From Octopus vulgaris (Eukaryota), in NCBI GenBank assembly GCA_951406725.2, contig OX597819.1, positions 77,376,001 to 77,440,000 on the forward strand: a stretch of 64,000 nt of DNA, given 5' to 3'. This document shows, in pieces, positions 1 through 43,224 of this stretch. How positions within the stretch are numbered: position 1 is the first letter of the stretch; every line of letters starts with the position of its first letter. The notes beneath the pieces are model-generated. The model made no database searches. It worked only from the letters and a program-made list of their open reading frames with translations, and was not told the DNA's origin. A program made the translations under genes and the position numbers.

Positions 1-1658
<1,658 letters not shown>

Positions 1659-2253
1659 GGAGTAAACACATAAATGTGAAACAAGGTGGAAAAAAGAGTA
1701 CTCAAATACCAGGGGTAGAGTAATATGCTTTATTTAAAAGCAGCAGAAATTCAACAAAACCTGTTACTCGGAGTTACTCTCATTCTAATTATATCAGCGA
1801 GTTTTCAAATACCTATCTAATTTTTGTATTCCTATCTCTGTCCACGTTAATTTAGAAATGTAATTATGAATATATGAATGTATATTTATGTATATTTTAT
1901 TTATATTGTCTTATTGTATCTAGTTTGCCTTTGAATTTTAGTGAAAATATGTAGTTGTATTGTATGTGAATGTACAGGACTACATAATTATTCACTCACA
2001 CGCGTAGATATATATACGTGGGTATGTGTATGCGTGTGTGTGTAGATAGATAGATATAGATATATAAAAGAAATTAGAATGACAAGGCAATAAAACATTA
2101 TGCCCTGAACTTCATTAGGGGACAGCTGTTTCTAATATAAGATACAATGCACTCGGAGCTGAGCGCTTACGCATTGCTCTGTCACAACATTTGAGCTTCA
2201 AAAATAAAATAACATTTTTATTTGGGAAAGAAGTTACAATTACATATATATAT

Positions 2254-2255
<2 letters not shown>

Positions 2256-2346
<91 letters not shown>
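2256..2346. repeat. (GATA)n microsatellite
   Basis: Direct reading. Confidence 0.97.
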
Positions 2347-2347
<1 letters not shown>

Positions 2348-2351
2348 GTAT

Positions 2352-3180
2352 ACTTACTTGGAAATGGATGAATGGTTTTCAATCAAATAATAATATGAAT
2401 AATATATATGCATATATATATGTGTGTGTGTATGTGTGTGTGTGCGTGTGTGTTATTTATATTATTATTTGATTGAACGCACACATCCATTTCCAAGTAA
2501 GTTTATCTTAATTTTTTGATGCCACTCTACCCTATACTGTTTTCTCCCCTATCGTTTTCTCTCACATCCTTTCTCCAAATCCGTTTTTCTCCCCTTCACA
2601 GTTTTCTATCTATCTCTCTCTCTCTCCCTCTCTCTCTCTCTCTTTCTACTCCTTTCTCCTTTTCTCTGTCACTCTACTCCTCTTTCTCCTTTTCTCTCTG
2701 TCTCTCTCTACTTCTCTTTCTCCTTTACTCTCTCTCTCTCTCTCTTCCTTTCGTTGCTCACGCGTGACCATCGTCCGTCTTTCTTTTCCTCACGTAATCA
2801 TCTTTCTTTTCTTTCAGGGCTTGTATCCTATCTATATATCTCTTCTATCTATTCTCTTTTCAAAGAAAATATTTCTTCAGCGTTCGCTATGTTACCCTCG
2901 TTCTTGTCTAACGACTCTCCATGCTTGTTTTTGTTAGGTTTCCTTGTATGTCTCCACTGTCCTGATTTTGTTCCCAACTTTGACCCTCCATAAATCCCAA
3001 ACCTTATTTTGGTATTTGTGTGAGCAACTGCCTTCGAAGACTCATATTATTGTTTAATGCCTGAAATGAGGAGTAGCTAGGCAGCTGACAACTGATGAAG
3101 GGTCGTTCTTTATGTTACTTGTCCTGTTTTCTGCTTGTTTCTCTCGTTGTTTGCGTATTCAACTCATATATTTTCGTAAA
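2352..3180 (+). mobile_element. Unclassified interspersed repeat with inverted 5' duplication (related fragment at ~5181-5385)
   Basis: 2352-2400 is the inverse of 2454-2502. GATTGAAC..CATCC..TCC(C)AAGTAAGTTT..ATCTTAAT recurs at 5181-5225. Confidence 0.5.
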
Positions 3181-3255
3181 TACACACACACACACACATG
3201 TATAAATATATATATATGTTATTTACACACACACACACACATATATATAAATATA

Positions 3256-3421
3256 GGCGCAGGAGTGGCTGTGTGGTTAGAAGCTTGCTTCCCAACAACA
3301 GGGTTCCAGGTTCAGTCCCATTGCGCGGCACTTTGGGCAAGTGTCTTGTACAATAGCCTGGCGCCGACCAAAGCCTTGTAAGTAGATTTGGTAGAGGTAA
3401 ACTGAAAGAAGTCCGTCATAT

Positions 3422-3466
<45 letters not shown>

Positions 3467-3665
3467 TGTCTGTGTGTGTCTGTGTTTGTCCCCACACTAT
3501 CGCTTGACAAATGATTTTGGTGTGTTTACGTCGCCGTAACTTAGCGGTTCGGCACAATAGACCGATGGAATAAGTACTAGGCTTACATATAATAAGACCT
3601 GGGTTCGATCTGTTCGACTAAAGGCAGTGCTCCAGCATGGTCGCAATAAGTAAAAGAATAAAAAA
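3256..3665 (+). mobile_element. tRNA-derived SINE, family A
   Basis: GGCGCAGGAGTGGCTGTGTGG head (A box), GGTTCAGTCCC B-box-like motif, internal (TG)n, A-rich tail. Many copies in window. Confidence 0.85.
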
Positions 3666-3682
3666 AAGAATAGAATATATGT

Positions 3683-4010
3683 GGAGACCCCTTTCAGTTA
3701 CGAATGACCATGGGATTGCACCTAGAAAGTTACCCACTGAGGCACAAGTCCGGGCAAGGTTGTTTATGGAAAACCAGCAGCGCCCATGCATACCAGCCTC
3801 CCCTCTCCACGCCACCGATGTCATCTAAGGGAAAGGTCGATACAGCTTTGCACCAGTGACGTCGCAACTCATTTCTACAGCTGAGTGAACTGGAGCAACG
3901 TGAAATAAAGTGTCTTGCTCAAGAACACAACATGCAGCCCGGTCCGGGATTCGAACTCCCAACCTCATGGTCGTAAGTTCGACGCTCTAACCACTGAGCC
4001 ATGCGCCTTC
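3683..4010 (-). mobile_element. tRNA-derived SINE, family C
   Basis: Minus strand GAAGGCGCATGGCTCAGTGGTTAGAGCG...GAGTTCGAATCCC gives A and B boxes, followed by a conserved body shared with the 20582 and 21352 copies. Confidence 0.85.
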
Positions 4011-4018
4011 ACACTATA

Positions 4019-4092
<74 letters not shown>

Positions 4093-4108
<16 letters not shown>

Positions 4109-4610
4109 TGTAGTTGTGTGAGTGTCTGTCTCCTACGATTTAGATTCCTAACTCCTCCCACATTTTGCGGTGCAGTTTAACCAAATTCGGGTATCTTATA
4201 GTCGTGATGAATATCGAGCCCGTCTGGCTATTAGCGCGCGTCTACGATGAGTCTACGATTTTAAAAATAATTTAACATCATTTTTTATTCCATTTTAATG
4301 CATAATTTTTTGTGTGTCGATGGCGGCGGAGTTGGCGTCCACGCTCAAACACCTGTACCTGTGTTTGCTTCTCCCCCTTCTTCCCTCCCTCGTGAAGCTG
4401 TGGGGACGGGAGTTTAAGGAAATCAACGTCGTAATGCGTTGTCAAGGAGACCAGCGTTCTTTTAGAACAACGACTTCATGGCTTGAAGACACCAAAACAG
4501 AAATGGCTAAGAAAGCCCGAATTGGCATCTATAAAGGAAGTAACTCTCTAAAAAATGCTTATATAGTTATTTCCCTTACAAACCCGAGCAACGCCGGGCG
4601 ATACTGCTAG
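4093..4610 (+). mobile_element. Non-autonomous Helitron, copy 1 of tandem dimer
   Basis: 3' hairpin CCCG-AGCAACGC-CGGG then CTAG end. 5' end merges with (TA)n. Confidence 0.85.
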
Positions 4611-5126
4611 TCTATATATATAAAACTGTAGTTGTGTGAGTGTCAGTCCCCTTCGATTTAGATTCCTAACTACTCCCACATTTTGCGTTGCAGTTTAACC
4701 AAATTCGGGTATCTTATAGTCGTGATTCATATCGAGCCCGTCTGAGTATTAGCGCGCGTCTACGATGAGTCTACGATTTTAAAAATAATTTAACATCATT
4801 TTTTATTCCATTTTAATGCATAATTTTTCGTGTGTCGATGGCGGCGGAGTTGGCGTCCACGCTCAAACACCTGTACCTGTGTTTGCTTCTCCCCCTTCTT
4901 CCCTCCCTCGTGAAGCTGTGGGGAAGGGAGTTTAAGGAAATCAACGTCGTAATGCGTTGTCAAGGAGACCAGCGTTCTTTTAGAACAACGACTTCATGGC
5001 TTGAAGACACCAAAACAGAAATGGCTAAGAAAGCCCGAATTGGCATCTATAAGGGAAGTAACTCTCTAAAAATGCTTATATAGTTATTTCCCTTACAAAC
5101 CCGAGCAACGCCGGGCGATACTGCTA

Positions 5127-5127
<1 letters not shown>
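4611..5127 (+). mobile_element. Non-autonomous Helitron, copy 2 of tandem dimer
   Basis: Starts TC directly after copy 1 CTAG, ends hairpin+CTAG|T, near-identical to copy 1. Confidence 0.88.
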
Positions 5128-5183
<56 letters not shown>

Positions 5184-5388
5184 TGAACACCACGCATCCT
5201 CTCCCAAGTAAGTTTTATCTTAATAATTCTGATGCGTACTCTTCGTACTCTTTCGTTTTTCTCTCTTTTTCTCTCTTATTCTTTTACCTCCCCTTCTCCT
5301 ATTACTCTTTTGTTTTTCTCTCTTCCTTTCTCCCCTTCCTGTTTTTTCCTCACATATCTTATCTCCAATTTTTTCTTCTCCCCTTCAT

Positions 5389-6382
5389 AAAATGTTATGG
5401 ATGCGGTGAAAGAGGGCACCTAAGAAGGAAATGCCCCAGAGCAACAGTAGATATGTTGGAACAGAGTGTACAGGAAGATACAGTGGTGGAAAAAAAAGCT
5501 GAAGCAGAGAACAGAATATGAGGGAAATTTGGCGGAAATAAAACCCAAGAAAAGCGAGAGAAGAAAGTCACCGACGACAGTGGAAGTGAAAAAATGTAAA
5601 GGAATGGAAGAAGAAACTCAACCCACGACGTGAAACGGAGAAAATTTGCCAGAGGAAGTACCAGCAAAGGAATTAAAAGGACAGAGTCATGCAAACCAGA
5701 AACAATTCCACTCAGAAATACGGAAACCTAAAAACATACAGACGAAACACGTAGAGTTACAGTCAAACGAACACACAGACTTAGAGATGAAGATACTAGA
5801 ACTCACAAAACAGCAGGAAAATAGAAACAAAATGTGACAATATGAAAAACGCAAACAAAAGGAAAATCATAGTGAGATAGGATACCCCAACGTACCCCAA
5901 GAGTGAAAGATATTGTGAGAGACAGAAGAGGTAAGCCGATACAATTTTGTAAAGACTATAACTCAGAAAATATTTATTTGAACTTTTAAGGAAAAATAAA
6001 ACAAGTCATTTTGCAAGTGTCGAATGAATAGATTTCCAAAATGTTTTTAAAAAGATAATGTGGTATACATTTGGTTGACTTTAGTTTTAAAAAAAAAGGA
6101 AAAGTAAGAAGTAAATCCTGTTTGAACATTTGTTTAAAAGGTGTAATTATAGGGCGAAAGCGAAAAGGGAAGTCGCGGTTTCGCCTCGGAGCGAGGCTAG
6201 AGGTTGTGTAATAAGTTAATGGTAAAGGAATACACGGTTTCATCTCGCAGCGGGAGTGAGATGGCCGACTCATTTGCATTGTAAATATATTCATTTCACA
6301 TTCATCCTTCATATATTTTATGTTCCCGCATGTCTTTGAATGTCCCCTCTGTAATTAGGCCTTGTGCCTGTAATAAAGAATT
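5389..6382 (+). mobile_element. 5'-truncated Tx1/L1-like ORF1-only retroelement, copy 1
   Basis: CCHC knuckle KCYGCGERGHLRRKCPR, charged tail, AATAAA near the end. Homologous to ~7140-8099. Confidence 0.6.
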
Positions 6383-6399
6383 AAGCTAGCAAGCCACGC

Positions 6400-8099
6400 C
6401 CTTTTGTTGTTTTTGAAAAATTCTAAGCGAAATTTTTTGTGCGAAGCCGCCATTGTTGGGTGGTAGTGAAACAATTTAAAAAACTGAAAAGTTACGCGGA
6501 GGCTACTGGAGGTCAAGTTCCCCTGGACCCACGTGTGCTGAAGCCGGGGATGATGGAGTGGAATGGAAGGAAGATAGCCAAATATTATGGTATGATGGGG
6601 AAGGAAGAGTCAAATATAAAAATGATCCTGCCAGAGGAGGAGAAAAGAAAGGTGGAAAGCAGGACGGTCATATTCAGAATATTTTCGAATGTAAATGGGA
6701 GAATGGGACACGCGCCGCAGGAGGAGATGGATAAAGTCTTGGAGAAATAAATAGGAGAAGGGATGACTTTCTTTACAAGAGGAAGGGAATAAGCGACTAT
6801 AATAGTAGCCTTTGTATCAGAAGGGGAGGCGAAAAAACCGAAACGGGCTGATACAGGGAGAGAAATGGACGTTGATGCCAAACTGTTTGAGCAAAGGAAT
6901 CGTTAGGATTGGATCCCACCATCGATAGATCCAGAATAGCCGCAATTTTTTAATTCAGTGCTGAGGAAGGAAGGTGAGGACCTGAAGATTGGTATAAGCC
7001 GAACACAACAAATGAAATGGTGGGGATGTGGTATAGAGATAATCTGTGCGGTGAACCCAAAAATTACGAAGAGATGGTTGAAGCTTTGGAATTACCAAAT
7101 GAAGAAGGGCTGGAAATGGTGTTAGAGGAGAGACCCCAAAGTATTACGGATGTGGTGAAAGAGGGCACTTGAGAGGGAAATGCCCTAGAGCAGCAGTGGA
7201 AGTGGTGGAGGAGGGTGTTCAGGAAGATGTAGTGGTGGAGAGGAAGCAGAAACAGAAAACAGAACATGACAGGAAGGGAGGGAGAAGGAAGTCACCGACG
7301 ACAGTGGAATTGAGGAAGTGTAAAGCAATGGAAGAGGCGGAGAGAGTTTACCGGTAGAATTACCAGTAAGGGATTTACAAGTGCAGAGTCATTCAGACCA
7401 GAAACAAGACAGCCCAGAATTGCGAAAACCTGGAGACATGGACACACAGACGGAACACATAGAATTGCAGTCAGGCGAACACACAGACAAGCAGACGCAA
7501 TTGCAAGAGACCATAAAACAGCAGCGGTGTGGAGACAGAGAGAGAGACAACATGAAGAAAACAAACGGAAGGAAGAATTATAGTGAGATGAGACGCCCCA
7601 ACTTGAAGGATTGCAGAATTGAGAGACATTGTGAGAGGCGGAAGTGGTAGGTCGTTGTAGTTTTGTAGAGACTGTGACTGAGTGGAGTGTTTGTTTGAAC
7701 TTTTTATGGAAGGGAAGAAAAAGCAAGTAAATTGCAACTGTTAAATGAACAGGTTTTCAAACATTTTTGAATACTGTGATAAATATTTGGTTGACTTTTA
7801 GTTGTAAAAAGGAAAAGAAAAAATGTAAACCGTGCATGAACATTTGTTTAAAAGGTTTATAATTGTAGGTAAAAAGCGAAAAGGGAAGTCGCAGTTTTGC
7901 CTCGGGGCGAAGCTAGAAGTTATGTAAAATGTAAAGGCTTAAGGAAAAGGAATCCACGGTTTCATCTCGCAGCAGGAGCGAGATGGCCGTTTCATTTGCA
8001 TTGTAATTTTATTCATTTCACATTCATCCTTTCATGTGTTTTTTTTTTGTTCCCGCATGTCCCCGCTGTAATTAGGCCTTGTACTTGTAATAAAGAATT
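6400..8099 (+). mobile_element. Tx1/L1-like ORF1-only retroelement, copy 2 (decayed gag-like ORF1)
   Basis: N-terminal KSYAEA motif, broken ORF ending in knuckle YYGCGERGHLRGKCPR (~7142-7190), no RT. Flanked by AAGCTAGCAA(G/A)CCAC(G/A)C at 6383-6399 and 8100-8116. Confidence 0.6.
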
Positions 8100-8171
8100 A
8101 AGCTAGCAAACCACACTACTCCAGATTGATGAAGAACAATGAATCTGAAACTAGTCTCTGGTTGCTGGCTT
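8100..8171 (+). ncRNA. Type I hammerhead-like motif with bulged extended stem I (C3U variant)
   Basis: CCAGA-TTGATGA-AGA acaatgaa TCT-GAAAC TA GTC-TCTGG (8121-8161). AAGCTAGCAA (8100-8109) pairs with TTGCTGGCTT (8162-8171). Confidence 0.7.
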
Positions 8172-8334
8172 TTCTGGGTGGAGGTGCTTATGTCACATAG
8201 CCAACTGGAAACGGTGTTTCCTGGGGCTATATAGCAGAAGCATTCTTCCCTTTCCTGGCAACAAGCCATCACTTTATCATGCTGCTACTGTATAAGTCTC
8301 TCTGACATATTTAGAAATGCAATATCCCTAATTT

Positions 8335-9194: not shown

Positions 9195-9397
9195 GACCTC
9201 GTGTGTACCGTTGGCGATTTTTTTTTCCTCTGTCTTCCCTTCTCTGGATCTTTCCTTCTCCTGTGTTTCCGACGAAGAGCTCCGCTCGAAACGTTAAACC
9301 CTCCTTCTTTCCTTCTTTCCTGAGCGTCCAATAATACTATATTTGTTCCACGTCCTCGCGTTGTTGTGTTTTTTTTTGTGCTTTCTTGTTTGGATTA

Positions 9398-9402
<5 letters not shown>
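9195..9402 (+). mobile_element. Small (TA)n-embedded repeat with minimal hammerhead-like motif (9265-9299)
   Basis: GTTT-CCGACGA-AGAGC TCC GCTC-GAAACGTT-AAAC, with (TA)n on both sides. Confidence 0.55.
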
Positions 9403-9454
<52 letters not shown>

Positions 9455-22266: not shown

Positions 22267-22528
22267 TTACCTATAAATTCTTCATTGCTGAATGAAGTTA
22301 ACACAGGCCGGATCTGAAGTCGTAAAGAAGGAATGGTGTGGAATTAGATATTTTAATTCCGCCAATCAATTACTCTACTTCCTCGGTTCTTCGATTTCCA
22401 GTATAAATACAACGGTACAACAATTTGAGTGACCTATTCTTTTTCTTTTCCTATTATTCTTTTCTTTGTTTCAGACTGCAGCCGTCCTGGAGACCCCCTT
22501 AAAAGGCTTAGTCAATGCAGTAGACCCT

Positions 22529-22566
<38 letters not shown>

Positions 22567-23436
22567 GATCCAGTGGTTATTTATTCTGACTTCTTTCTCA
22601 AACTGCTAAGTTACGGGGATGTAAACAAACCAACATTGCTTGCCAATTGGTAGAAGGTAAATACAAACGTGCACGCGCGCGCACACATACACACACACAA
22701 ATTTTATTTCTTTCAAGCAGAAAGTTTCTTTCACGTGGCATTCGTTCTCCTTTATAAGATATCAGCTATTCATCAGTATCATGTCTCTTCTTCGCACGTG
22801 ATGTACCTCGTATCTTTTTGTTTTTTGTTTTGTTTTGTTTTGTTTTCATCGAGGTCTTTTATCGATTCGTTGGGGTTCTTTTTTCTTAAGAAATCTGATT
22901 ATCCCCATCAGCCTCCAAATGGACCCTACCCATCCTCATAAAAGTATGAGGTCGTATTGTTTATGAGGAGATGATACTTCTCGCTTATTTACGATCACTT
23001 GTGGTTGTTTCTATGTATGTGTCCTTGTCGCCGGTTGTAGCTGGAATAGTGAGAGAGAGAAAGAAAGAGAGAGTTTTGTGTTTTCATAAGTTTCCATAAG
23101 TTCCTGGCAATGGACAACCGGACAATAATATTTGCCGATTTGTGAATTGTAACTGGTGTCGCTTTTAGACCAATATCCTTCGTGATACTTTTCTTGGTGG
23201 TATGCAGCGAGCTCTTAAATGGGATTGGCTCCTACATGTGGAGTAGCCGAGTCGTCTATCGTGAGTACTGAATTTGGAGGTCTTCCCAACAATGTCTCTA
23301 AGCTCGCTTGTGTTGCCACTGCTTCGTCCAACTGCCTGCTTCGACGACGAACGCTCGAGGAGCGCACCGCTTTCCCGCCACCGGATGAGTACTCTCTTCT
23401 TTTTAATGTGTGCAAAGGACAGCTTTTCGTTATACA

Positions 23437-23521
<85 letters not shown>

Positions 23522-24089
23522 GCATTGAATATAGTATGTGCATACACGTTGTTGCTGTTGCTGATGCTGTTGTTGTTGAGTTAAACATATCTATTATGTT
23601 TGTAATATATATGTTATATATGTATGTATATAATTTTCATTTTTAACCGCTACTTTGTGTTCATAAATATTTTTTTATCATTTATTTTCTTTTTTATTAT
23701 TTGTTTTGCTTGTTTACTGTAATTTCTCTGAGAACCGGATCAGAAAAGTGAAGCTATTTTCTACCTTAGCAATTTGACAGCAGAATAAAATGAAGACATT
23801 TTCAAAAAATCGACTTCGTTATCTAATCCTAGTGAGAAACTGAGTTTTCAAAATGTCTTTGTGTGAAATAAAATCCAAAATGCAAAACATCAAGCAAAGA
23901 CATATCAAGAGCGTTTCTATCTTCGAAACATGTTCTTGTCCTTGTAATCTATCTTTTCAACACTTGTTTTTGAGCTACGAAAATAAACTCAACAGAACAA
24001 TAACAATATATTACAATACCTCTCCTGGGTATTGTAATATAGGTTGTCGTTCGGCAATTATTTGTTATTTATCCGATATCAAAAGGAAA

Positions 24090-24600
24090 ATAATGTCAAG
24101 AAGAGCGCTTAAATTGTAAATACTTGAATAAGCTGAACAGAATGGAAATACGCCCAAAACTTTTTTAAAGTAGCTGAGACGCGTAAGACAAACTGGAGAC
24201 TGACTGAAAGATACTTCAGCACAAGACCAAAGCCTTTCCACGATAAACTACCAAAAATATATAATGAAACTGAATACAATAAGTAAACTGCAGAATATGT
24301 GGTGATGCAGAAAAAACAGTCCATAGTTATCCAACCTTATCCACAAAAGAATATATCCACACATATGACAGCACTATAGAATGCTAACAGAAAACTGGAA
24401 GTTGTGACAGCACTATAGAATGCTAACAGAAAAGATTTAAAGGCATATCCTAGGAAAGTCATAGACAATGACTAAGTAGCCACACCCTGGGTATGCCAAA
24501 AACTCAACAGACGGCAAGATCAAGACCATTCGATCAGATATTGTTAAGAACCAAGAAAACAAATGCCTCCTAATCGACATATCTAACATATTCAGAAGAC
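24090..24600 (+). mobile_element. Highly degenerate R4/Dong-like LINE remnant
   Basis: ~24530-24585 translates RSDIVKNQENKCLLIDIS, resembling the RLE motif at 63900-63980. Confidence 0.4.
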
Positions 24601-26159
24601 TATAAATTTTGCGTAAGTGACGTATAGTCGGTTATATCGACTCCAGTACTTTACTTGTATATATTTTATTGACCTAGGAAGGATGAAAGGCAATGTTCAC
24701 CTTCGTAACTTTTAAATTCAAAAAGTAAAGGATTTGTAGATCGAGTATATTTTTTGACAGCCCGTGTCCTTTGCTTTTTAAAGAAGGTAGGTATGTTTTG
24801 AAGGAAATCTGGCCGCTGTTTCTGGCGCGTCAAGGGAAAATGTAGAGACTTTTCCGCTAGCTCAACTAAGTTCTGAGAGTGACAGCGACAATTTTTCTAA
24901 AACTACTTTCGACCGCGTTATATAAGTTCTTATATTTCTCTTTTGTGAGTGTGACGTCATCAGAGAATAATTTTGATCAACAAAAATATATAGACGTACA
25001 CATATACTCGAACATACATACACACACACACACACAAGAACAATCTCTCTCCCTCTCCCACGCACACTCATACACATAAACACAATCTCTCACACACCTA
25101 CATACATACATACAGTTAACGTAAAATAATTTGATTCATTTGTTGACCTATATCAAAATGACAACACATTTATTGAAACAAGTAAGCAAATTTTACATTT
25201 GTTGTTGAATAAATATTTATCCCACCGGCATTCTGCAGATGGCTTAGGAAAAACGGAGCAACAAAGAAAGGCCAGCGATATTCACGGCATCAGCTACACT
25301 TCCTTACCGGATTCTTTCCTTAGGCATGACCTTCATCCTAATGTGAAGATCAGTGAACCAAGGACACGAGCAGTCTTAAGAGTGACAGGTGCGAAAAGGA
25401 AATTTGTAGGTCAATGACTCATAGCACGACAGCTCAGGTTTTTATTGCTTAGTTGACTAACTTGACACTGAAGTACATCACAATACGTAGCGTCCCTTTA
25501 AGTGATTTGCCTCTCTCGAACGGGAAATGAATAACCCCGTCCAAACTTCAATTGTTTGTAAGAGACAAACAAGCTCCACTTGTGACAGGGAAACAGCAGC
25601 GTCGAGCTTCCTCTTCATGACATCGTTTAGAGGAGCGGGATGAGAGAAACGTCTCGAATTCTGACGAAGAAACAGCAAGTACAGTCAGAGTCTATCGACA
25701 AGAGCTCTACAGTAGTATTTTATGTAGCTTACATCCGCGGTGATCGGGATACAATAAAATGCAATGCTTGCGTACTCACCGTCATGATGTTGCCGACTGA
25801 CGAAGAAAGTACGGCATTGAACCAGCAAGGCTCTTTGGTTTGGCAGTGTGGTAGTCCGAAGGAAAGCAGGGTGGTATTGGTCGAGGGATAACTAATTCAT
25901 CGTGCTTGTTGCAGCTACATTTCATATTGCTTCAGCTGTGTTGAATGTCTGCTTTCAAGAGAACAGTGAGACCATCGTAAATTCAAACAACCTCGAAATT
26001 CCATCCTTGAATTCGCAGATAAGGTACCAATTCATTCTCAATACGTTCTGGCAGATTCGAACATAAACATACTGAGCGTTGTTGTCTTTCAACGTCGGAG
26101 AACAACTCATTTTAGACGATGTCTGTTTAAAGCACACTTTATTTATTTATAAAAGGAGA

Positions 26160-26206
26160 CTAAGACACTGCAGTGTTTCGACCTTTTTGTAAGTCTCCTC
26201 AGTCAA
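26160..26206 (-). ncRNA. Type I hammerhead ribozyme motif
   Basis: Minus strand TTGA-CTGAGGA-GACTT acaaaa AGGTC-GAAA-CACTGCAGTG-TC-TTAG. Canonical core, GUC site, palindromic stem III. Confidence 0.7.
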
Positions 26207-26369
26207 AATTACCCTTGGAACAATGAATCTAATCTATTGTTTATAGAAATCTGTTGGGATTCTTGATGTTCTGTGTATGCCTTGGGAATTATTAACTGAC
26301 ATCGGCATGCAGTAACAAATAAGTTGTATGCAAAGCGGATATCTATAAACAAGAGCCAGTACTCTTGTT

Positions 26370-26642
26370 AGATTACGGGGATATAAACAAACCAACACCG
26401 ATTGTCAAACGGTGGTGGGAATAAACACACGCACAAAGACACAAAAACACACACACACACACACACACACACATATGCCACAGGCTTCCATACAGTTTCT
26501 GTCTATCAAATTCACTTACAGAGCATTGGCCAGTGTCGTCCCGAAGTTATATTAGAAGACATTTTCCCTCAAGATGCCGCGTAATGGGACTGAATCCGAA
26601 ACCATGTGATTGCAAAGCAAGCTTCTTAACCATACAGCCATG
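26370..26642 (-). mobile_element. Diverged SINE family A
   Basis: GGGACTGAATCCGAAACCATGTG...CTTCTTAACCATACAGCC. Confidence 0.7.
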
Positions 26643-26647
26643 TCCTC

Positions 26648-26761
<114 letters not shown>

Positions 26762-27395
26762 CTCGGAAACTCAAAAGAAAAAACACCGGACAAAAGTGTT
26801 GTCAAATTTCATGCCTTTACGTCATACTTATATTTTTCCATCACCACCGGTGGCCTCGCTTCAGTTGACGATGTAATAAACAATTTTTAAAGGAAGGAAG
26901 AGGGAGAAATATAAGACAGCTGTGATGCAACAACATCAATGATAGAAACAAGATTAGCGCACGCACGGATACAGAAAAGACTTGCGCTGCTCTAGCGGAA
27001 TTGTCTCTGCTATTTCGTAATCACAATTAGTGTTTCTGAGAGCACCATAAAATATTCATTTCAGTTAAAATCAGCAACTATGTATACCAATTTTTCTGTG
27101 AATCAACAGATATTAAACTTGTGTGTGCGCGCGCGTGTATGCGTTTGTATGGGTGTTTGTCAAACAGGGGAATGATTTGGGCAAGATATAGAAGGTAAAG
27201 AGCAACATGTGTTGCGATATTTAGTTACATCACTCTGCGTTCCGAGTTCAATTCTCACAGTGCTCGACGTTACGTTCCAGTTCTTTTTCTTCCTTGGTAG
27301 ATAGAATAATTATCAACCAAGCACACGGATCAATCTAATAAACAATGCGACAATGTAACCGAATATGACTTGGAACGAGAACATTTTTTTAGTTA

Positions 27396-27445
<50 letters not shown>

Positions 27446-27454
<9 letters not shown>

Positions 27455-27722
27455 GAAGGTTTGAAAATGCAATTTTAAAGATGTTAATTCACTCGACCGG
27501 TTTCACTTTTTTAGTAAATGATTGTCAAAAGTATAATGTAACGCTTTGTAATAGCTTTGTTGTGTTAAGTACTGGTTGTCATATTGTAATATTTTGTGAC
27601 AACCAATACTTAACACAACAAAGCTTTACATTTTACTTTTGTCAATCTTTTACTAAAAAAAGTGAAACCGGTCATGTGAATAAACATCTTTAAAATTGCA
27701 TTTTCAAACCTTCTTTCATATA
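27446..27722. repeat. ~275-bp foldback palindrome next to (TA)n
   Basis: GAAAGAAGGTTTGAAAATGCAATTTTAAAGATG...CATCTTTAAAATTGCATTTTCAAACCTTCTTTC. The arms pair almost to the centre. Confidence 0.92.
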
Positions 27723-27760
27723 TATTTCCACTCGTGCGGTACCTTACAACTTCACTTTGT

Positions 27761-27828
<68 letters not shown>

Positions 27829-29539
27829 TGAGACAGAGATAAGATCATTGATTAGAGAACAAACATCAAATTCGGGTCAACGATTTCATGTAATCCCACG
27901 CTTCTATACATTTTATCCTATACAAATAATACCATGGCCTTCAACATATAAAAGAAATAGATATATAAACACTAAAGGTAAAAAATACATATATGCACAT
28001 ACAAAAATACTTAAAAATACAAAAAGCGTTTGATTGAAGCCAGTGCCTTGCTTTACTCCAACGACTGGGAAAGGTTCCGTCTGTAGTACCCAAATTAGGT
28101 CGTGGTAGACAGACCGTCTTGAAATTGCACGACAATCTCCACAATTTTGTCTGGTCAACGATAACTTTTGAGCAGAGACTGCAAGCCCTCACTTCTCACA
28201 CTGTAGAAAGTCTTCGTAAAGTTAATATATGCGATGAGAGGTGGAACACGTTGTTCTATAAACTTTCCTTGGATTTGCCGTAAGATAAAATCATATCATT
28301 GATATTCCTAGATATATTAAATCTGGCCTTCTGTCTAGCTTAGAAATATGTGTGTATGTGCATGTATAAATGTGTATGTTAGTATGTGTACGCGTCTGTA
28401 ACAGTTAGTGCGTTTGCGCATGTGCTTTTTGTTTGTTTGTGATATACATTTCATAGTACTGTTTTTCATTGAATGAGAACTATCATCTGTGCGTTAGATG
28501 AAAGCGCTTGATCTACGTAGTAAATGATTTCGTTATAACACAACTATGTTGGTTGACTATTCAGAATTTACATGATAATACTTTATCTGACACACACGCA
28601 AAAATAAGAATACATTTCAAACAACAAACGCCAATGTCAACAACTCATATACATATACACACGTCACATATTATTGTTGCTGTCTTTATTTTTCAATTTA
28701 TTTATTGTTATTTTTTGTTACAGGATAGTGTGAGGTATTTATAATGAATGACTGACCTATATTTGAAAGGATTTTCACCAGCTTCACAACGCCGATATTT
28801 ACATACTTTATGAAGAAAATCAACAGTGTTAGGTGAGCCAGACGATTTATGTCCGACCATAGCTTGAAGTTCATTTGGTTTGATTGAATAGATTACGCGA
28901 CATACACTTAAACCTTAAACTGGCTATATTAACAGCATGAGTTAAGTGACCTCACAGATAGAAAGATTGATAGCTAGTTAGGTAGACGAATTATTAAAAT
29001 GAATGATGTAATCTAGACTTCAATACAGTATCAAAATACTCAGTTATCCGTTTTGTTTAACGCTATAACTCTCATTATTTCTCTTTTTGTGCATGTGTGT
29101 TATTGATTTTACTGCCAGGATAATAGATGATGGTGAACAATTTTAACTGTTTGTCTAAGAAACTTATTCCAAGTATTACAAAGGGCCAAAGGAAACAATC
29201 AACCTTGAACAACTGCTAATCCTATGCAAAGCCTTTACAACACCCTTGATTAGAAAACCGCATGCAGATTCTAGGATCTGCGTTTAGTTATTATTATCAA
29301 ACTACTAAAGAGCAATAGATAGGTAGAATCAAAAATAGATCAACAAGCAAGTTGTTTGCTTATATTTACTTACGTTTCGTAGAGTTCTAAGTTCATAACA
29401 CCAAATACATCAACTTAATCCTTTCATCCTTCGTGGGTCGATAAAAGAAAATTCGTGCAACTCCCCGGTATTACTTTGTCGCTACCATTTTCTCTTAATG
29501 CTTCAAAGTGAGTGTTAAATACACTAAATTTTCTCGGCT

Positions 29540-29910
29540 TGTGGGCATGGATGTGTGGTTAAGAAACTCGTTTTACAACTCCGTGATTTCAGGTTCAGTC
29601 CCACTGGCCTTTTACTATAGTTCCAGGCCAATCAATGTCTTACGGGTGAATTTGGCAGGTGGAAACTATATGGAAACCTACCATGTGTGTGTATTTGTAC
29701 TTGTCTCTCCCCCATAGCATGACAACTGATGAATACGGGTGCTGATCTGTTTACGTTCCCGTAACATAGCGGTTCAGCAAAAGAATAAACAGAATAAATA
29801 CCAGGTTTTAAAATTACATGCTGAAGTCGATTTGTTCACCCAAACCCTTAAAGGCAGTCTCTTCATAGCCACAGTCCAATGACTGAAACAAGTTAAAGAG
29901 AAAAGATAAT
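29540..29910 (+). mobile_element. Diverged SINE family A
   Basis: TGTGTGGTTAAGAA...GGTTCAGTCCCACTG...CCACAGTCCAATGACTGAAACAAG. Confidence 0.65.
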
Positions 29911-31187
29911 TTTGTCTTCCAGTTTAATGGTGCCTGAAAAGTCAACAATGCTTATCTTCTTCAAATTGAAGGTTTTAAATGACCTTTTGGGAAGTGAGAT
30001 AAAACCTGTTTATTAATCCTTTCCACTATAGGCACAAGAGCTGAAATTATTGGTGGGTGGGGCGGTTAGTCGAACATTGAGCACGGTACTCAACTGGAAA
30101 TCAATTAGGCTGCATGTTCTAATAATTTTGCTTTACTATCGAACATCTAGTGCATGAAGGACATTCAGCTAAAAGAAGCACTGAAGAAATAAAGCCTCCG
30201 AAAGAAAAACTAACCTATTCCGCTAATGAATATGTATTTATACAAAGTGAAAATTACTATAACCACGCATTATCTAAAGCTTGGTATAAGGTTAAACTTT
30301 ACGATATCCCGAATCCCACTACTAATAAAATATCCGATACGATATTAAATATGGAAATCTTGATGGACAGTGCGATAAGAGTAAATACATTAAGTAAAGT
30401 AAATAGTCCATTCAACTATAGGAACAAGGCCTGAAATTGTTGGGGAGGGAGAGAGTCGATTACATTGACCCCAGTACTCTACTGATACATAATTTATCGA
30501 CCCCGAAAGGATGAAAGCAAAGTCGACCTCGGTGGCATTCTATCAGCTCGCCGCCTGAAGTAAGGTAAATAATAGCAAGAATAATAACACTAATACGATA
30601 GGTAAGCGAATCTTAAAGACAAACATACTGACACAATAATTTTGATTAATATTAATAGGCGTAGAGGTAACTCTGAATACAGTAAAGGTATGGTTGTTAT
30701 AAACATTACAAATAATAACAAAGAGTGTATAGATTTGATTAACTTAAAGCATTAGAATTATGGCAAGAAAACGTCAAATTTTAGCAATAAAATTAAGGAT
30801 TATGAACATGGAGGTAATTCCACGAATGTTAGTACTACAAAAAATGTCTACGTAGATGAAAGGAATACTAAATCAAAGAATATTATCAGGTATAATGAAT
30901 GATTTTCATCTTACATTAATACTAATATTCCTCGGAAATTCTTTGTAGCACTTGTTAAATATTTCCCACCTTTAAGTGCGGTAAATTATTAAATCACCAT
31001 AAAGTAAAATTTTCTTATTCAGCCATCAGAAATATAGCAGATATCGCAGTACATAATAAAGGTACAATTTAAAGAGTATATCAACTTTAAAATAGTAAAC
31101 CCAAGTAGGAATGATAGGATTAATTGCGCGATAAACTGTAATACTAACTGACCTGAAGGAGTTTATACTTGTAGGTGTCAGAATGTT

Positions 31188-31332
<145 letters not shown>

Positions 31333-31599
31333 TTAACAGTGAAAGTAATAATATTACTAATGATAATAATGATAAAGTTAATCTCGACTCTAATGTATAC
31401 ATAAATAATGATTTAGATGCTGATTTAGCGGAAATAATCATCATGTCTTGATACTTTAGGTGAAAGTAAATCCAACGGTGAAATTGATAATACCTTTAAG
31501 ATAACACCTAGTAACAATACTGCTAATAATCCTGTTTTAACATCTAATTCTGAGGGTAGCGTTAGGACTTCTTAGGAACGAACAAACTCCTTTCTACTG

Positions 31600-31985
31600 A
31601 AAACAAACTTATGTGTCCTTTAGAACATCGTTGTTTAAGAAAGAATCTAGAATGTCAATATATGGCAATTGCAGGTGATTGTACGTATTATTACACTAGT
31701 TCACAATTTAGAAATCTAGGTTATATAACCATTCTTCTTCATTTAAGTTTAGGAAAAGATGTAATTCTACGAATCTTAGAAGATGCATTAGAGATTTGAA
31801 AAGCAAAAACATTAAAAACGATTTGAGGTAGTTAATTTATAAGTTAAGCTCCACTGTACAATACTGGTAATTTTAAATGTGATCTTTGCCTTGAAGAAAT
31901 GTATTATGCAATTAATTTAAAATAAAAATTATTAAATTCTAGAATCAATCTTACATTGAAATGTCCGCATAAATATTTCAATAAG
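31600..31985 (+). pseudogene. Penelope-like element GIY-YIG endonuclease remnant
   Basis: CPLEHRCL upstream motif and C-terminal KCDLCLEEMYYAI...LLNSRINLTLKCPHK, the Cys/His-rich GIY-YIG end of some PLEs. Many stops and frameshifts. Confidence 0.55.
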
Positions 31986-32534
31986 AAGCACCTTCATTGT
32001 GACTGTCTTTCCTTTAATTTATTAAGCATAATTTTTCTAAATTAAAAAAAAAATTATTTTTGAACATTCCTAAATAACCAAATAAGTAAATATACTAACG
32101 TAACATTTCTACGTATATTTTTATACTTTCATAAGTTTAAATATTCAACTGGCTTTTCTCAGTATATAATATTTCTTCTTAACACTCTTTGTGTCTACAT
32201 TCATGCATAGCCATTATATCAGTTCACTTTGAATTCAAGCCGTTACTTTGATAACATTGCGCTCGCTTAAATTTCTAATGTAATGAAATTTACAATCGAT
32301 CCAATACGCATCGATTTCGTAATTTGTATTTTTTTCTATGTCTAAAAATGCTTTCACAATGGAAATGATCGTTGGTCCTGTATGATGTAATCCTCAAATA
32401 AAAATGGTATTCTCCATTTTTGTTCATATTATTTTCTGTCTATCTATTTATCTATATATCTGTCTATACGCGCACACACACACGTGCACACACACACACA
32501 TACACACACACACACACACACATACCCTTTAAAT

Positions 32535-32748
32535 TTACTTTACTTTTTCAGTCATTTTACTGCGGTTATGGAATTTTTTTTTAGTCGAGCAAATCGACCC
32601 CAGAGCTTATTTCTTAAAGCTAGTACTTATTCTATCGATCTCTTTTGCTGAACCGCTAAGTTACAAGGACGTAAACACACTAACGCAGGTTGTCAATGAT
32701 GTCGGTGATGGGGGACATACACAAACTCAAAGATACATCAACATATAG

Positions 32749-32788
<40 letters not shown>

Positions 32789-32949
32789 GACGGGCTTCTT
32801 TCAGTTTCTGTCTATCAAATCCACTCAAAACCTTTGGTTGGCCCGATGCTGTAATAGAAGACACTTTCCCAATGTGCCTAGCGGTAGGACTGAATCCGGA
32901 ACCATAAAGTTGGAAAGTAAGTTTCTTGCCACACAGCCACGCCTGCGCC
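32535..32949 (-). mobile_element. SINE family A (partial second copy 33040-33180)
   Basis: Ends CCACACAGCCACGCCTGCGCC, the reverse of the head. Confidence 0.8.
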
Positions 32950-32960
32950 TACATACATAC

Positions 32961-32991
<31 letters not shown>

Positions 32992-34339
32992 CATACATAC
33001 ATACATACATACATACATACATACATACATAGGTAATAGATTTCCACACAGTTTCTTTCTACCAAATTCACTTATTTGGTCCACCCGGGGCTATTGTAGA
33101 ATACGCTTGCCCATGATACCGCGCAATAGGTCTGGACCCGAAACTATGTGGTTACAAGCAGACTTCTTAACTACACAACCAAGTTTTCACTAATACGAAA
33201 ACATCATAGTTGTTATTATTGTTATCCTTTCAAGTAATTTGTCTTTTGTAGGTTTTAATTTTTTTGTTGTTTTTTTTTTGTTAATGTGTCTCCTATTTGT
33301 TGTGCATTCGCTTTCTGTTGTCTCTAGTCCCTTGGGGCTATTGATCTGAAAAGAAATTCTTTATCGAAAATAAATTTACCTGGCAGTCATTAAGAGAGGA
33401 AAGGAGTGGGGGAAGATTTTCCTAATCAATGGCTCTCTTTTGCCACAAGTGAAGACTTCCCCCTCTGCTGGTAATCCAACAGAATCACCATTGCCGCTGT
33501 CATTGACATAGTTACAGAGAGAAAATGAGGTATTTGGAGCAGTAACGGCAACACAACCTACTGAACAAACAACAATATTAGCAAATTAACGCGTCTTGTA
33601 ACAATGACGATAGTAAGAACAATAGCCACAAGTACTGAACACCAAGGGCAATAACAACGGCGAAGTTAAAGAAAAGAAAAAATAGCAACAACAGAGTTGA
33701 GATGAATAATAACGCCAACAACATCGAAAGCCAGAAGAGGGAAGATTCAGGAACAACGACAGCAGTAGCAATACATTTTATACTGCTAAGACCACCACCA
33801 CCACCACCACCACCACTATCTTGACCATCATCATCACCAATACCACCACAATCACCACCATCATCATCATCACCACTACCACCATAACCAGCACCATCAT
33901 CACCACCACCGCCACCGCCACCACCACAATCACTACTAATACTATCAACAAAGTAAAGAACGAGACTGCGTTGCCAGCTTCTATTTGTACAAGCGGCAAT
34001 GGTTTCATCCACACAGCTAGCACAAACAAAGTTGTTTCCTTCTTCGAACATCGCCACGGTATCGATATTTTTGATCGGGTATGAGCCCCAGGAAGCTCTT
34101 CGGACGAAAGCAAGACGCACATCGTGGAACCTGAAATTCGAGCGCTGCTAGAACAAAATGAGCCCTCCATAAACTAAAAGTGTGTCAACCACAAACCAGG
34201 ACGCGTAGACAACACATTACGAACGGTAAAATGTGCCTGTAAGACCCCCCAAGGCTTCCTCATGCAATGAAACCAATAAACTCTCTCACAAAACAACAGA
34301 AATAACTGCAACAGCAGCAAATTTATTGAAATATATGTA

Positions 34340-34690
34340 CGAGGATCGGTTGAAAAGTTCGTAGGCTGATCAAGATACTTTCATGGAATGTGACCAATTG
34401 AAGTTTATTTTTAAACATAGTCCCTCTTGAGGTCCATACACTTCATCCGTCGGTGTTGCAGTACTTGGATCCCATTGATGAAGAAATTTTCATGCTGTTG
34501 GTCAAATGAGTCATCAACAACAGATATGACGTCATTACAACTACGGCACTGGTTCCCAGCCAAGTGTTTGTTTGTTTGTTTTTTTTTTTGTTTGTTTTTT
34601 TTTTTTGTTGAAGAACAGATGATAGTCAGATCAGATCAAACCAGACGAATACGGAGGATGAAGAACAACCATATCAAAGCCACAGTCTTC
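34340..34690 (-). mobile_element. Mariner 3' end fragment
   Basis: TA|CGAGGATCGGTTGAAAAGTTC TIR-like end. Minus strand KCMDLKRDYV* matches the mariner C-terminal KC...GDY motif. Confidence 0.65.
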
Positions 34691-35080
34691 TTTGAACAGT
34701 CAGATGCCAGTTTACCTGGAAAGAAACAATACAGTTACTTATTAATAAGAAGAACCTGAAATTAATGCGTGCAAGATTTTATAGCTCTAGCTTCACTCCT
34801 TCATAGTCAGTCTATGGACTTTTCAGCCCACCCTCACAATGTAAAACTATTGAACGTAATATAAGACGTTTGTGTATTTTTACTGGTTCCGGTCACCGAT
34901 TCGCAGCCATGCTGGAACACTGTCTTGAAGGGTTTGGTCTATTATATCAACTCCAGTTTTTAATTGTCTAGTATTTTGTTTTTCTTTTCGATTTACGTTT
35001 AACGAAGAATATAACTTTCTCAGGCACCACCGGTTTTATACCAACAAACATGAACAGAGACACAAACTACAATATATATT

Positions 35081-35117
<37 letters not shown>

Positions 35118-35120
<3 letters not shown>

Positions 35121-35312
35121 AAAATTTACGAAAATAAACAAAAGACGAAGGCAGGTGGAGTACAAACAAACAAATGTATTAGTATAGCGCTCAGGAAGAG
35201 AAAAAGTCTTTTACGTTTCGAGCCTACACTCTTCGACAGAAAGATACACAGAAAAAAAAGGAGAAAAACAAGGAGAGAAAAAAACGCGTGTATGAGCTAA
35301 CGATCTATCATG
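35118..35312 (-). mobile_element. Small microsatellite-embedded repeat with minimal hammerhead-like motif (35207-35244)
   Basis: Minus strand TCTTT-CTGTCGA-AGAGT GTAG GCTC-GAAACGTA-AAAGA. Shares TTCCTGAGCG with the 9195 element. Confidence 0.6.
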
Positions 35313-36270
35313 GCGTACATACATACACTCATTCATGCATGTAAACATACAAGAATGCAAATGTGTGTGTGTGCATGTGTGCATGTATGCGTGTGTGTGT
35401 ATGTGTGTGTGTCCATGTGTATCAACATCGTCATTATCATCATCGTTTATATTTAACATCTGTTTTCACGTTGGCATGGATTGCACAGAATTCTATGTGT
35501 CCAAGGACTTCATCATTCTGCAATGTCTGTTTTGGAATGGTTTCTTAACTTAGCAAAAGGAGTCAGAATTACTAGAAAGAAGGAGTATTATCAACTCCAA
35601 ATTTGATAAAAAAAAAAAAAAAGCAAAGCCAAACACAGCGATTATTGAACTTATACCAGAAAGGGGCATTATTCAACGCTTCGAAGTATTTTGTTTAGTA
35701 TCTGCTGTTTCTGACAATCTACTGGTCACTTTCCATTATAAATAAGAACGGATATTTACTGGACATATTATATGTCTGGATTGGTTTGGGTGTATTCCAG
35801 GTAGTTTACTTTTTTACATATCACATATTACAAACTTTTAATTTGTATAACTATTGCCACACACACACTCACACACACACACATACACACGCACACACAC
35901 TAATACACACACACACACATTCGCATACATTCACAAATGATACACATAAACCTGCCTATTAGGCCGGAGTTCATCCTGGTTTCCGTGTCATTTAAGTGAC
36001 TTAGAAGTCTCCTACACTGAAAAAAAATTGGGACCATCGAAGGTCAACCACCCGCCATTACCTTTCACTGTTAACCATTTTCAGCCGCTGAGTGCACTAA
36101 AGCAACGAGAAATGAATTGCCTTGCTCAGAAACACAACACGTTTCTTAATCAAGAATTGATCACAACCTAAAGAACGTAAGCTCAACATCCAAACCAGTA
36201 TGCTAAGCACTTTTATCTTCCCTCTTTCTCACATTCTCTTCCTCTCCAGCTCTCTCTATCTCTCTCTCTA

Positions 36271-42628: not shown

Positions 42629-42633
<5 letters not shown>
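39743..42633 (-). mobile_element. CR1-clade LINE, 5'-truncated, inserted in (TA)n
   Basis: ORF2, ~70-bp 3' UTR, tandem 3' tail (TTCTAAGTTA)2. Confidence 0.9.
39830..42630 (-). CDS. LINE ORF2: APE endonuclease (N-terminus missing) plus reverse transcriptase
   Basis: GGTAIYV, LYRPP, MGDFN, SDH (APE); [36 protein letters not shown] (RT); RPHLEYC. The ORF-track N-terminal ~80 aa are microsatellite. Confidence 0.92.
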
Positions 42634-42665
<32 letters not shown>

Positions 42666-42674
42666 ATATATTTA

Positions 42675-42712
<38 letters not shown>

Positions 42713-42733
42713 GTGTGTATGTATATATATATA

Positions 42734-42827
<94 letters not shown>

Positions 42828-42879
42828 CATATGTGTGTGTGTGTGTGTATATATATATACATATACACATATGTATTTT

Positions 42880-43224
42880 CAACGGCACTCCGTCGGTTAC
42901 GACGACGAGGGTTCCAGTTAACCCAATCAACGGAACAGCCTGCTCGTGAAATTAACTTGCAAGTGGCTGAGCCTTGAACTCTTAACTCTTATCGAAGATT
43001 CGGCGCAACACAGAATATGACAAACCTGGCCCTTTGAAATACAGGTACAACAGAAACAGGGAAAAAGACTGAGAGAAAGTTGTGGGAAAAGAGTACACCA
43101 AAGTTCGCCCCTACTGGAGCTTCGTGGGGCTTTAAGTGTTTTCGCTCAATAAACACTCACAACGCCCGGTCTGGGGATCGAAACAGCGAGTCCGCTACCC
43201 TAACAATTGGGCCATTGCACCTCC
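42880..43224 (-). mobile_element. SINE family C-related copy
   Basis: CAACGGAACAGCCTGCTCGTGAAATTAAC shared with ~21385-21420. Confidence 0.7.

Follow-up and report, generated by a model that had tools for sequence, protein, structure and literature searches.

Several LINE families of the Tx1 clade direct their insertions into other mobile elements, as passages of Kojima (PMC4494074) describe. For instance, Tx1L enters the piggyBac element Tx1D, while Tx1-Mar and SINEU-3 both enter Mariner-N4_AMi; Tx1-9_AMi lands in Harbinger, and Tx1-8_Crp and Tx1-4_AMi land in LTR elements. According to the same passages, the Tx1-mobilised SINEU-3 also forms tandem insertions that sandwich the target-site duplication (TSD). 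Target-specific Tx1 riders and elements that encode ORF1 alone are each known already, and excerpted literature credits Octopus vulgaris with 13 recently active L1-Tx1 families, 80 in all. Among ribozyme-bearing repeats, PLE hammerheads are described in excerpts of Cervera and De la Pena (PMC4209133) as having a palindromic helix III and a conserved G10.1-C11.1 pair, and the same excerpts report that a single minimal PLE hammerhead shows no detectable cleavage as a monomer.

Here we describe a locus in a 64,000-nucleotide stretch of the O. vulgaris genome (assembly GCA_951406725.2, contig OX597819.1, 77,376,001 to 77,440,000, forward strand), hereafter the window, within which all positions are numbered. 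An octopus repeat family of 1.7 kb is present as two decayed copies, arranged head-to-tail ahead of a repeat that carries a hammerhead-like motif. The family is multi-copy, neither of the two copies encodes a reverse transcriptase, the anatomy can be read directly from them, and the 17-mer that follows each of them is also found in host copies that have different sequence upstream. The features discussed are as follows.

5389..6382, plus strand: element copy 1, 5'-truncated at the zinc knuckle, aligning to copy 2
5393..5434, plus strand: intact CCHC zinc knuckle of copy 1 (Pfam zf-CCHC)
6372..6377, plus strand: AATAAA of copy 1, 5 bases short of its end
6383..6399, plus strand: left 17-mer, the 3' flank of copy 1 and likely the target-site duplication of copy 2
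6400..8099, plus strand: element copy 2, apparently full length, 1.7 kb
6484..7924 (end inferred), plus strand: decayed ORF1-like gene with stops and frameshifts, located by tblastn to Octopus proteins
8089..8094, plus strand: AATAAA of copy 2, 5 bases short of its end
8100..8116, plus strand: right 17-mer, whose first 10 bases pair with 8162-8171 as an outer stem
8100..8325, plus strand: high-copy host repeat, seen in contig depth, loose ends, joints and folding
8121..8161, plus strand: degenerate type I hammerhead-like motif, from a descriptor scan and folding

Anatomy and affiliation of the element copies

Copy 2 consists of a 5' UTR of about 85 bases, a single decayed ORF and a 3' UTR of about 175 bases. 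Copy 1 (5389-6382) and the corresponding part of copy 2 (7138-8099) are identical at 752 of 942 aligned bases (79.8%), and the two are collinear from the knuckle to the 3' end, neither with an ORF2. Both terminate in AATAAAGAATT with the 17-mer directly after; an initial annotation had claimed the same terminal letters followed by the 17-mer at 6383-6399 and 8100-8116, and both sites were verified. Inspection of the sequence at the two element 3' junctions found no poly(A) run. A Pfam scan of 6/6 forward frames, three per copy, returned no reverse transcriptase or endonuclease family, in agreement with the earlier proposal of a non-autonomous retroelement, here an ORF1-only family. That annotation had also described two diverged copies of a CCHC-knuckle element without a reverse transcriptase. 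The number of copies and the missing reverse transcriptase are borne out, and the knuckle is intact in copy 1 alone (zf-CCHC E 0.00018, 21.9 bits, cut-off 20.8), copy 2 having Tyr at the first Cys position.

Because copy 1 starts at the knuckle and another repeat lies upstream, its 5' end and left TSD have been lost. The left flank at 5175-5388 is this different repeat, of which 5176-5284 matches 2466-2572 within the window at 73% and a short inverted piece lies at 2352-2389; reading the flank as an inverted piece of the element was rejected (score 27, shuffled mean 26). Just upstream of copy 1 there is also a young 518-base tandem repeat with copies that are 97% identical (4095-4394 and 4613-4912 onward).

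The ORF1-like gene encodes, in order, an RRM-like region, the single knuckle, a charged low-complexity region and a Cys/basic C-terminal stretch. When the Octopus proteins P0002, P0005 and P0007 were compared with the window by tblastn, the best E was 2e-32, and the ORF remnant of copy 2 aligns to Octopus proteins from 6484, at their first residue, through the knuckle. Relatives of ORF1 numbered 10 at E<=0.001 among 1.84 billion representatives, and 9 of the 10 are named Octopus (Octopus vulgaris or O. bimaculoides); by these searches, and within them, the ORF1 family appears as multi-copy and octopus-only. The Atlas neighbours of relative P0007 include CCHC clusters and a ZCCHC3 RNA-binding-domain cluster (score 0.89), to be taken as a lead only, as are its Atlas structure neighbours, DUF4283 clusters of which one reaches the naming bar. 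DUF4283 is typical of plant L1 ORF1. An AlphaFold model of ORF1 was too poor for use (pLDDT 44), and Foldseek with that model gave no match at E<=0.001. For the Cys/basic C-terminal stretch neither a Pfam family nor relatives were found, and it may derive from the C-terminus of an ORF2. On this evidence, the ORF appears to act as an L1/Tx1-type ORF1; placement in Tx1 would need a reverse transcriptase, which neither copy has.

We tentatively favour an ORF1-only state that is a trait of the family, as in HAL1, because the window copies are collinear and diverged contigs from other loci, read by hand, span 5444-5747 and 5798-6350 without a large insert; the intervening 5748-5797 is not spanned among the 32 of 6,217 contig pieces listed. 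A search among the relatives for longer or fused ORF1-ORF2 proteins found none, which is weak evidence, and it found no autonomous partner with endonuclease and reverse transcriptase. Elsewhere in the window, on the minus strand at about 39830-42988, a 1052-codon stop-free frame runs from a microsatellite start into LINE-like endonuclease-type sequence, and this stretch has no DNA similarity to the element 3' end. From 13881 onward on the plus strand, a 151-codon frame is presumably a Tc1/mariner-like transposase remnant, to judge from its motifs.

The host repeat and its hammerhead-like motif

The initial annotation closed the feature at 8171, and contig depth and joints carry the host repeat on to about 8325, where it ends beside a (TA)n tract. 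Folding places a second hairpin at about 8176-8250, and the window copy is without two short segments that other copies have near 8191 and 8258. Evidence on other loci comes from contigs assembled from 4 of 24 listed runs, and 4 of the 20 that contain part of the stretch; no RNA run is listed as containing it. The contig comparison draws on 40 of 1,503 letter rows, 15 of 138 joints, 24 of 1,248 loose ends and 32 of 6,217 pieces, and run X20, whose RNA nature is only guessed, was excluded as expression evidence. Summed contig depth, which is not copy number, reaches 70,097, 82,568 and 65,053 over 8161-8259 in three DNA runs and 22,385-35,503 at 8136, within the motif, compared with 71-77 for own-locus contigs (X1) and 147-5,175 for the element body. 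By this contrast with the element body, the host is a separate repeat, far more abundant than the element. In the element's final 100 bases (6280-6378), depth stands at 8,257, 6,388 and 4,307, several times that of the adjacent body, which suggests many short 5'-truncated copies or other families that share the tail, perhaps an autonomous partner.

The host repeat is likely Penelope-derived. Hints in that direction are the type of the motif, the neighbouring (TA)n tract and opposite-strand joints at 8102/8187 and 8185/8256, although hairpins could also cause such joints. Non-LTR retrozymes are built of tandem monomers of 170-400 bases, each with a hammerhead, and the window has a single host copy. 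The two host hairpins were also considered as a pre-miRNA or snoRNA, a candidacy dropped given that the stretch is a high-copy repeat; neither a SNORD109A match (E 2.8) nor the miRNA matches, which microsatellites drive, were taken as more than chance. Rfam gave no hammerhead, snoRNA or miRNA over threshold, and motif scans found 0 loci in metagenome contigs and 0 in prokaryote genome contigs.

A hammerhead had been called at 8121-8161, where a non-random layout goes with a degenerate core. The parts are an inner stem I of 5 bp (8121-8125/8157-8161), a core at 8126-8132, a 3-bp helix II (8133-8135/8144-8146), GAAA at 8147-8150 and a palindromic 2-bp helix III, CTAG, with a putative cut after 8156; the three-helix type I layout with palindromic helix III is that of PLE motifs. 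Outside these, 8100-8109 form a 10-bp outer stem with 8162-8171, separated from the inner stem by an 11-base bulge. The 17-mer had been taken whole as the 5' strand of stem I; 10 of its 17 bases do pair in this manner, and 8110-8116 fall in the 5' bulge. A relaxed descriptor that allows U3, drawn up after the motif was seen, matches once in the window, in 0/100 shuffled windows and in 0/5000 shuffles of 8100-8325. The strict descriptor (CUGANGA, GAAA, UH; C3-G8, G10.1-C11.1) has no match in the window: the core has U in place of C3, and helix II is without G10.1-C11.1. Folding prefers a rod (z -4.4), whose -26.2 kcal/mol compares with -15.9 for the hammerhead-shaped fold, a margin of 10 kcal/mol. 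Judged by layout and core, we file the motif as a decayed PLE-type hammerhead, non-random but degenerate. At 8136 the window's letter is not shared by most of the other host copies, and the motif at the level of the family may be better formed than the window copy.

The relaxed scan also picked out a second, unrelated PLE-type minimal hammerhead-like motif at 9260-9410 on the plus strand, with its core near 9269. It has a 4-bp helix II with a G-C closing pair and belongs to a different repeat, which ends at a (TA)n tract and is present as a single copy in the window. A third hammerhead-like motif, with a longer helix III region, lies at about 26135-26202 on the minus strand.

The 17-mer and the origin of the two copies

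The order along the locus is element, 17-mer, element, 17-mer, host, and the two 17-mers, identical at 15/17 bases, bracket 6400-8099. Searched with up to 3 mismatches, a pattern derived from these same two sites matches twice in the window, at the two sites themselves (chance mean 0.30). Ahead of 8116, loose ends come from 19 contigs in X1 and 21 in X2 in which 17-mer-like letters are present, and upstream of the 17-mer the sequence of these contigs agrees poorly (0.51 in X1, 0.60 in X2). Ribozyme repeats with no element directly upstream, which the initial annotation had proposed as a check, are therefore found. As the 17-mer is joined to different upstream sequence in these contigs, the most fitting reading of it is host sequence and a target-site duplication, rather than the element's own end; the same observation speaks against the proposal, also made at the outset, that the ribozyme is the element's own 3' terminus. 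The majority line of the X1 loose ends is A-rich upstream and partly like the element end, and some of the X1 contigs may be diverged filled sites. Around the full copy (6400-8099), the flanking 17-mers make up a likely TSD, as expected of L1/Tx1-type elements.

These contigs also bear on the notion that element, 17-mer and hammerhead repeat are a single Penelope-moved transcript, with the truncated and full copies as a PLE-type partial tandem and the ribozyme repeat as the 3' part of the unit. Such a unit would explain, by 5' truncation, why depth rises 3'-ward from the body through the element 3' end and the hammerhead to the downstream host, and excerpts of PMC8557442 describe partial tandems as typical of PLEs and one Chlamys type that combines a zinc-knuckle ORF with a 3' hammerhead. 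Copy 1, however, is followed by just 17 host bases and no hammerhead, the 19 and 21 contigs depart from the reference at the 17-mer into other upstream sequence, and the AATAAA at the junction together with an L1-like ORF1 fits poorly; we regard a composite unit as improbable.

Whether the tandem reflects two insertions or one duplication can be judged from letters private to one copy. Of the 40 letter rows listed, 25 lie in the overlap of the copies and were used, 13 being missing from copy 1, 1 found only in X20 and 1 in the host. Five of the 25 fall in gaps; at 20/20 alignable private positions the other copy has the family letter, and since 0/20 private letters are common to the copies, late duplication of one decayed copy appears unlikely. 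Over the 3' 164 bases identity is 89%, compared with 77% for the body (Fisher p 0.0006), a pattern which favours two source elements whose 3' ends are under constraint over a neutrally decaying duplicate, although gene conversion could mimic it. Both results weigh against the simple segmental tandem duplication raised in the initial annotation, at least in its late form. By codon position, the copies differ at 38/146, 28/144 and 35/145 sites, with no third-position excess.

The 17-mers differ at 2/17 bases, the same level as the 3' ends, with JC distances of 0.13 and 0.12, respectively, or about 0.06 per copy. For O. vulgaris repeats, a part of PMC13282606 equates JC 0.065 with 18 million years, and on that scale the insertion event would be old. 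Run X2, which carries another organism label, has contigs that match copy 2 at about 98%, so the locus is common to it.

Our working reading, held at barely better than even, is that an autonomous L1/Tx1-type LINE put both ORF1-only copies in sequentially at a preferred site, leaving a 17-bp TSD. A candidate autonomous L1/Tx1-type partner would act in trans by target-primed reverse transcription, nicking the bottom strand at the 17-mer's 5' boundary and the top strand 17 bases further along. Each insertion would keep the target intact on its 3' side while duplicating it on the 5' side, and the regenerated site would allow a later copy to land again, giving the tandem. The endonuclease would recognise DNA sequence, with the ribozyme as a bystander, and the ribozyme is probably incidental. 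The 3' end of the RNA would come from the AATAAA just ahead of the junction. The usual spacing from AATAAA to cleavage is 10-30 bases, and with AATAAA 5 bases before the junction the cut would fall inside target sequence. Ordinary cleavage of this sort could, in essence, furnish 3' target homology with no ribozyme at all.

A more elaborate version of targeted insertion gives the ribozyme a function: read-through RNA would be cut after 8156, and the 57 target bases left at its 3' end would base-pair with the nicked target, strengthening specificity. The sense orientation and the insertion point do place the whole motif downstream of the element, neither junction has a poly(A) run, and co-transcription with the target can strengthen R2-type targeting according to passages of PMC4494074. 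Against this stand a core without C3 and G10.1-C11.1, a helix III of 2 bp, a rod fold favoured by 10 kcal/mol, the undetectable cleavage of monomeric minimal PLE hammerheads (PMC4209133, in excerpt) and an AATAAA that could supply an ordinary 3' end, and we consider ribozyme function here very unlikely. Nothing supports a self-cleaved element 3' end, which is not established because the core is degenerate and AATAAA offers an ordinary route. We give correspondingly little credence to a three-layer octopus system in which an ORF1-only rider on a Tx1-type LINE seeks out stem I in a Penelope-derived hammerhead repeat, with the host ribozyme cutting the read-through RNA to leave a 3' end with target homology.

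Sequential insertion at a preferred site must also be weighed against a chance or weakly preferred landing of one copy in an abundant repeat; the tandem would then have arisen by early local duplication or a second local priming, and flanks elsewhere would be mixed. Within the locus, two likely insertions sit at one exact base. Beyond it, X1 and X2 have a joint between 6396 and 8186 whose depth is that of a single copy and whose short side has 25 letters; it may mark a second filled site. The alignments of records 10 and 11 of X13, from another species, break off at 6381 and 6384, leaving 107 and 180 letters over, and do not continue into the 17-mer; a variable A-tail or a second hidden piece could mask the target there, or these may be plain off-target insertions. 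No joint from 6399 to 8117 is among the 15 of 138 listed. Target specificity in PMC4494074 is defined, in the passages concerned, as the same target in >20% of flanks. The contigs offer one weak joint in favour and two ambiguous cases against, and do not establish genome-wide site specificity; it is for this reason that our confidence in sequential, targeted insertion stays near the midpoint.

Absence of true specificity would sit well with the two X13 contigs that end their alignment at the element 3' end, with the very high abundance of the host repeat, with the lack of third-position excess between the copies and with the lack of a strong element-to-host joint among the 15 of 138 joints listed. 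It sits less well with the 3'-biased identity, which is unexpected for a neutral duplicate unless gene conversion intervened, with the 0/20 common private letters, which leave only a duplication right after insertion, and with the possible second locus at the 6396-8186 joint. Overall we judge such unspecific landing unlikely, while taking it seriously as a competitor.

Relation to known systems

If targeting is true, an ORF1-only rider and a hammerhead-bearing repeat join the known Tx1-type target range, in a mollusc. Site-directed insertion is one use for which target-specific LINE endonucleases attract interest. It would be new for an element to form its 3' ends with a ribozyme taken over from the target, although the evidence here does not support such use. 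A literature search found no paper on such a rider together with a hammerhead-bearing target; Repbase or the O. vulgaris Zenodo repeat library may include the family. The part consulted of a preprint on animal retrozymes (bioRxiv 10.64898/2026.07.22.740005) makes no mention of Tx1 or octopus.

The host motif resembles PLE minimal hammerheads (PMC4209133) and animal non-LTR retrozymes (PMC7229834), as portrayed in excerpts of both, in being type I with a short helix I and a palindromic helix III, and in occurring singly, as a dispersed motif of a short repeat with high copy number. It differs from them in having U3 with G8, in lacking G10.1-C11.1 and a tandem array, and in having no linked PLE ORF here. 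The element, for its part, recalls HAL1 (half-L1), which in passages of PMC5753468 has a single ORF1 and no ORF2 and is mobilised in trans. Unlike HAL1, which those passages describe for mammals, its ORF1 is of the RRM plus CCHC type, and it has a candidate target preference.

The closest comparison is with the target-specific Tx1 elements. Here the target is a hammerhead-motif repeat, and the rider is no SINE but a 1.7-kb element coding for ORF1; its putative specificity is read chiefly from this locus, and neither copy has a reverse transcriptase by which the clade could be assigned. What the octopus locus has in common with those elements, as passages of PMC4494074 describe them, is one insertion point in an abundant repeat, a TSD of 16-17 bases, tandem copies around that TSD and non-autonomous riders that share the target.
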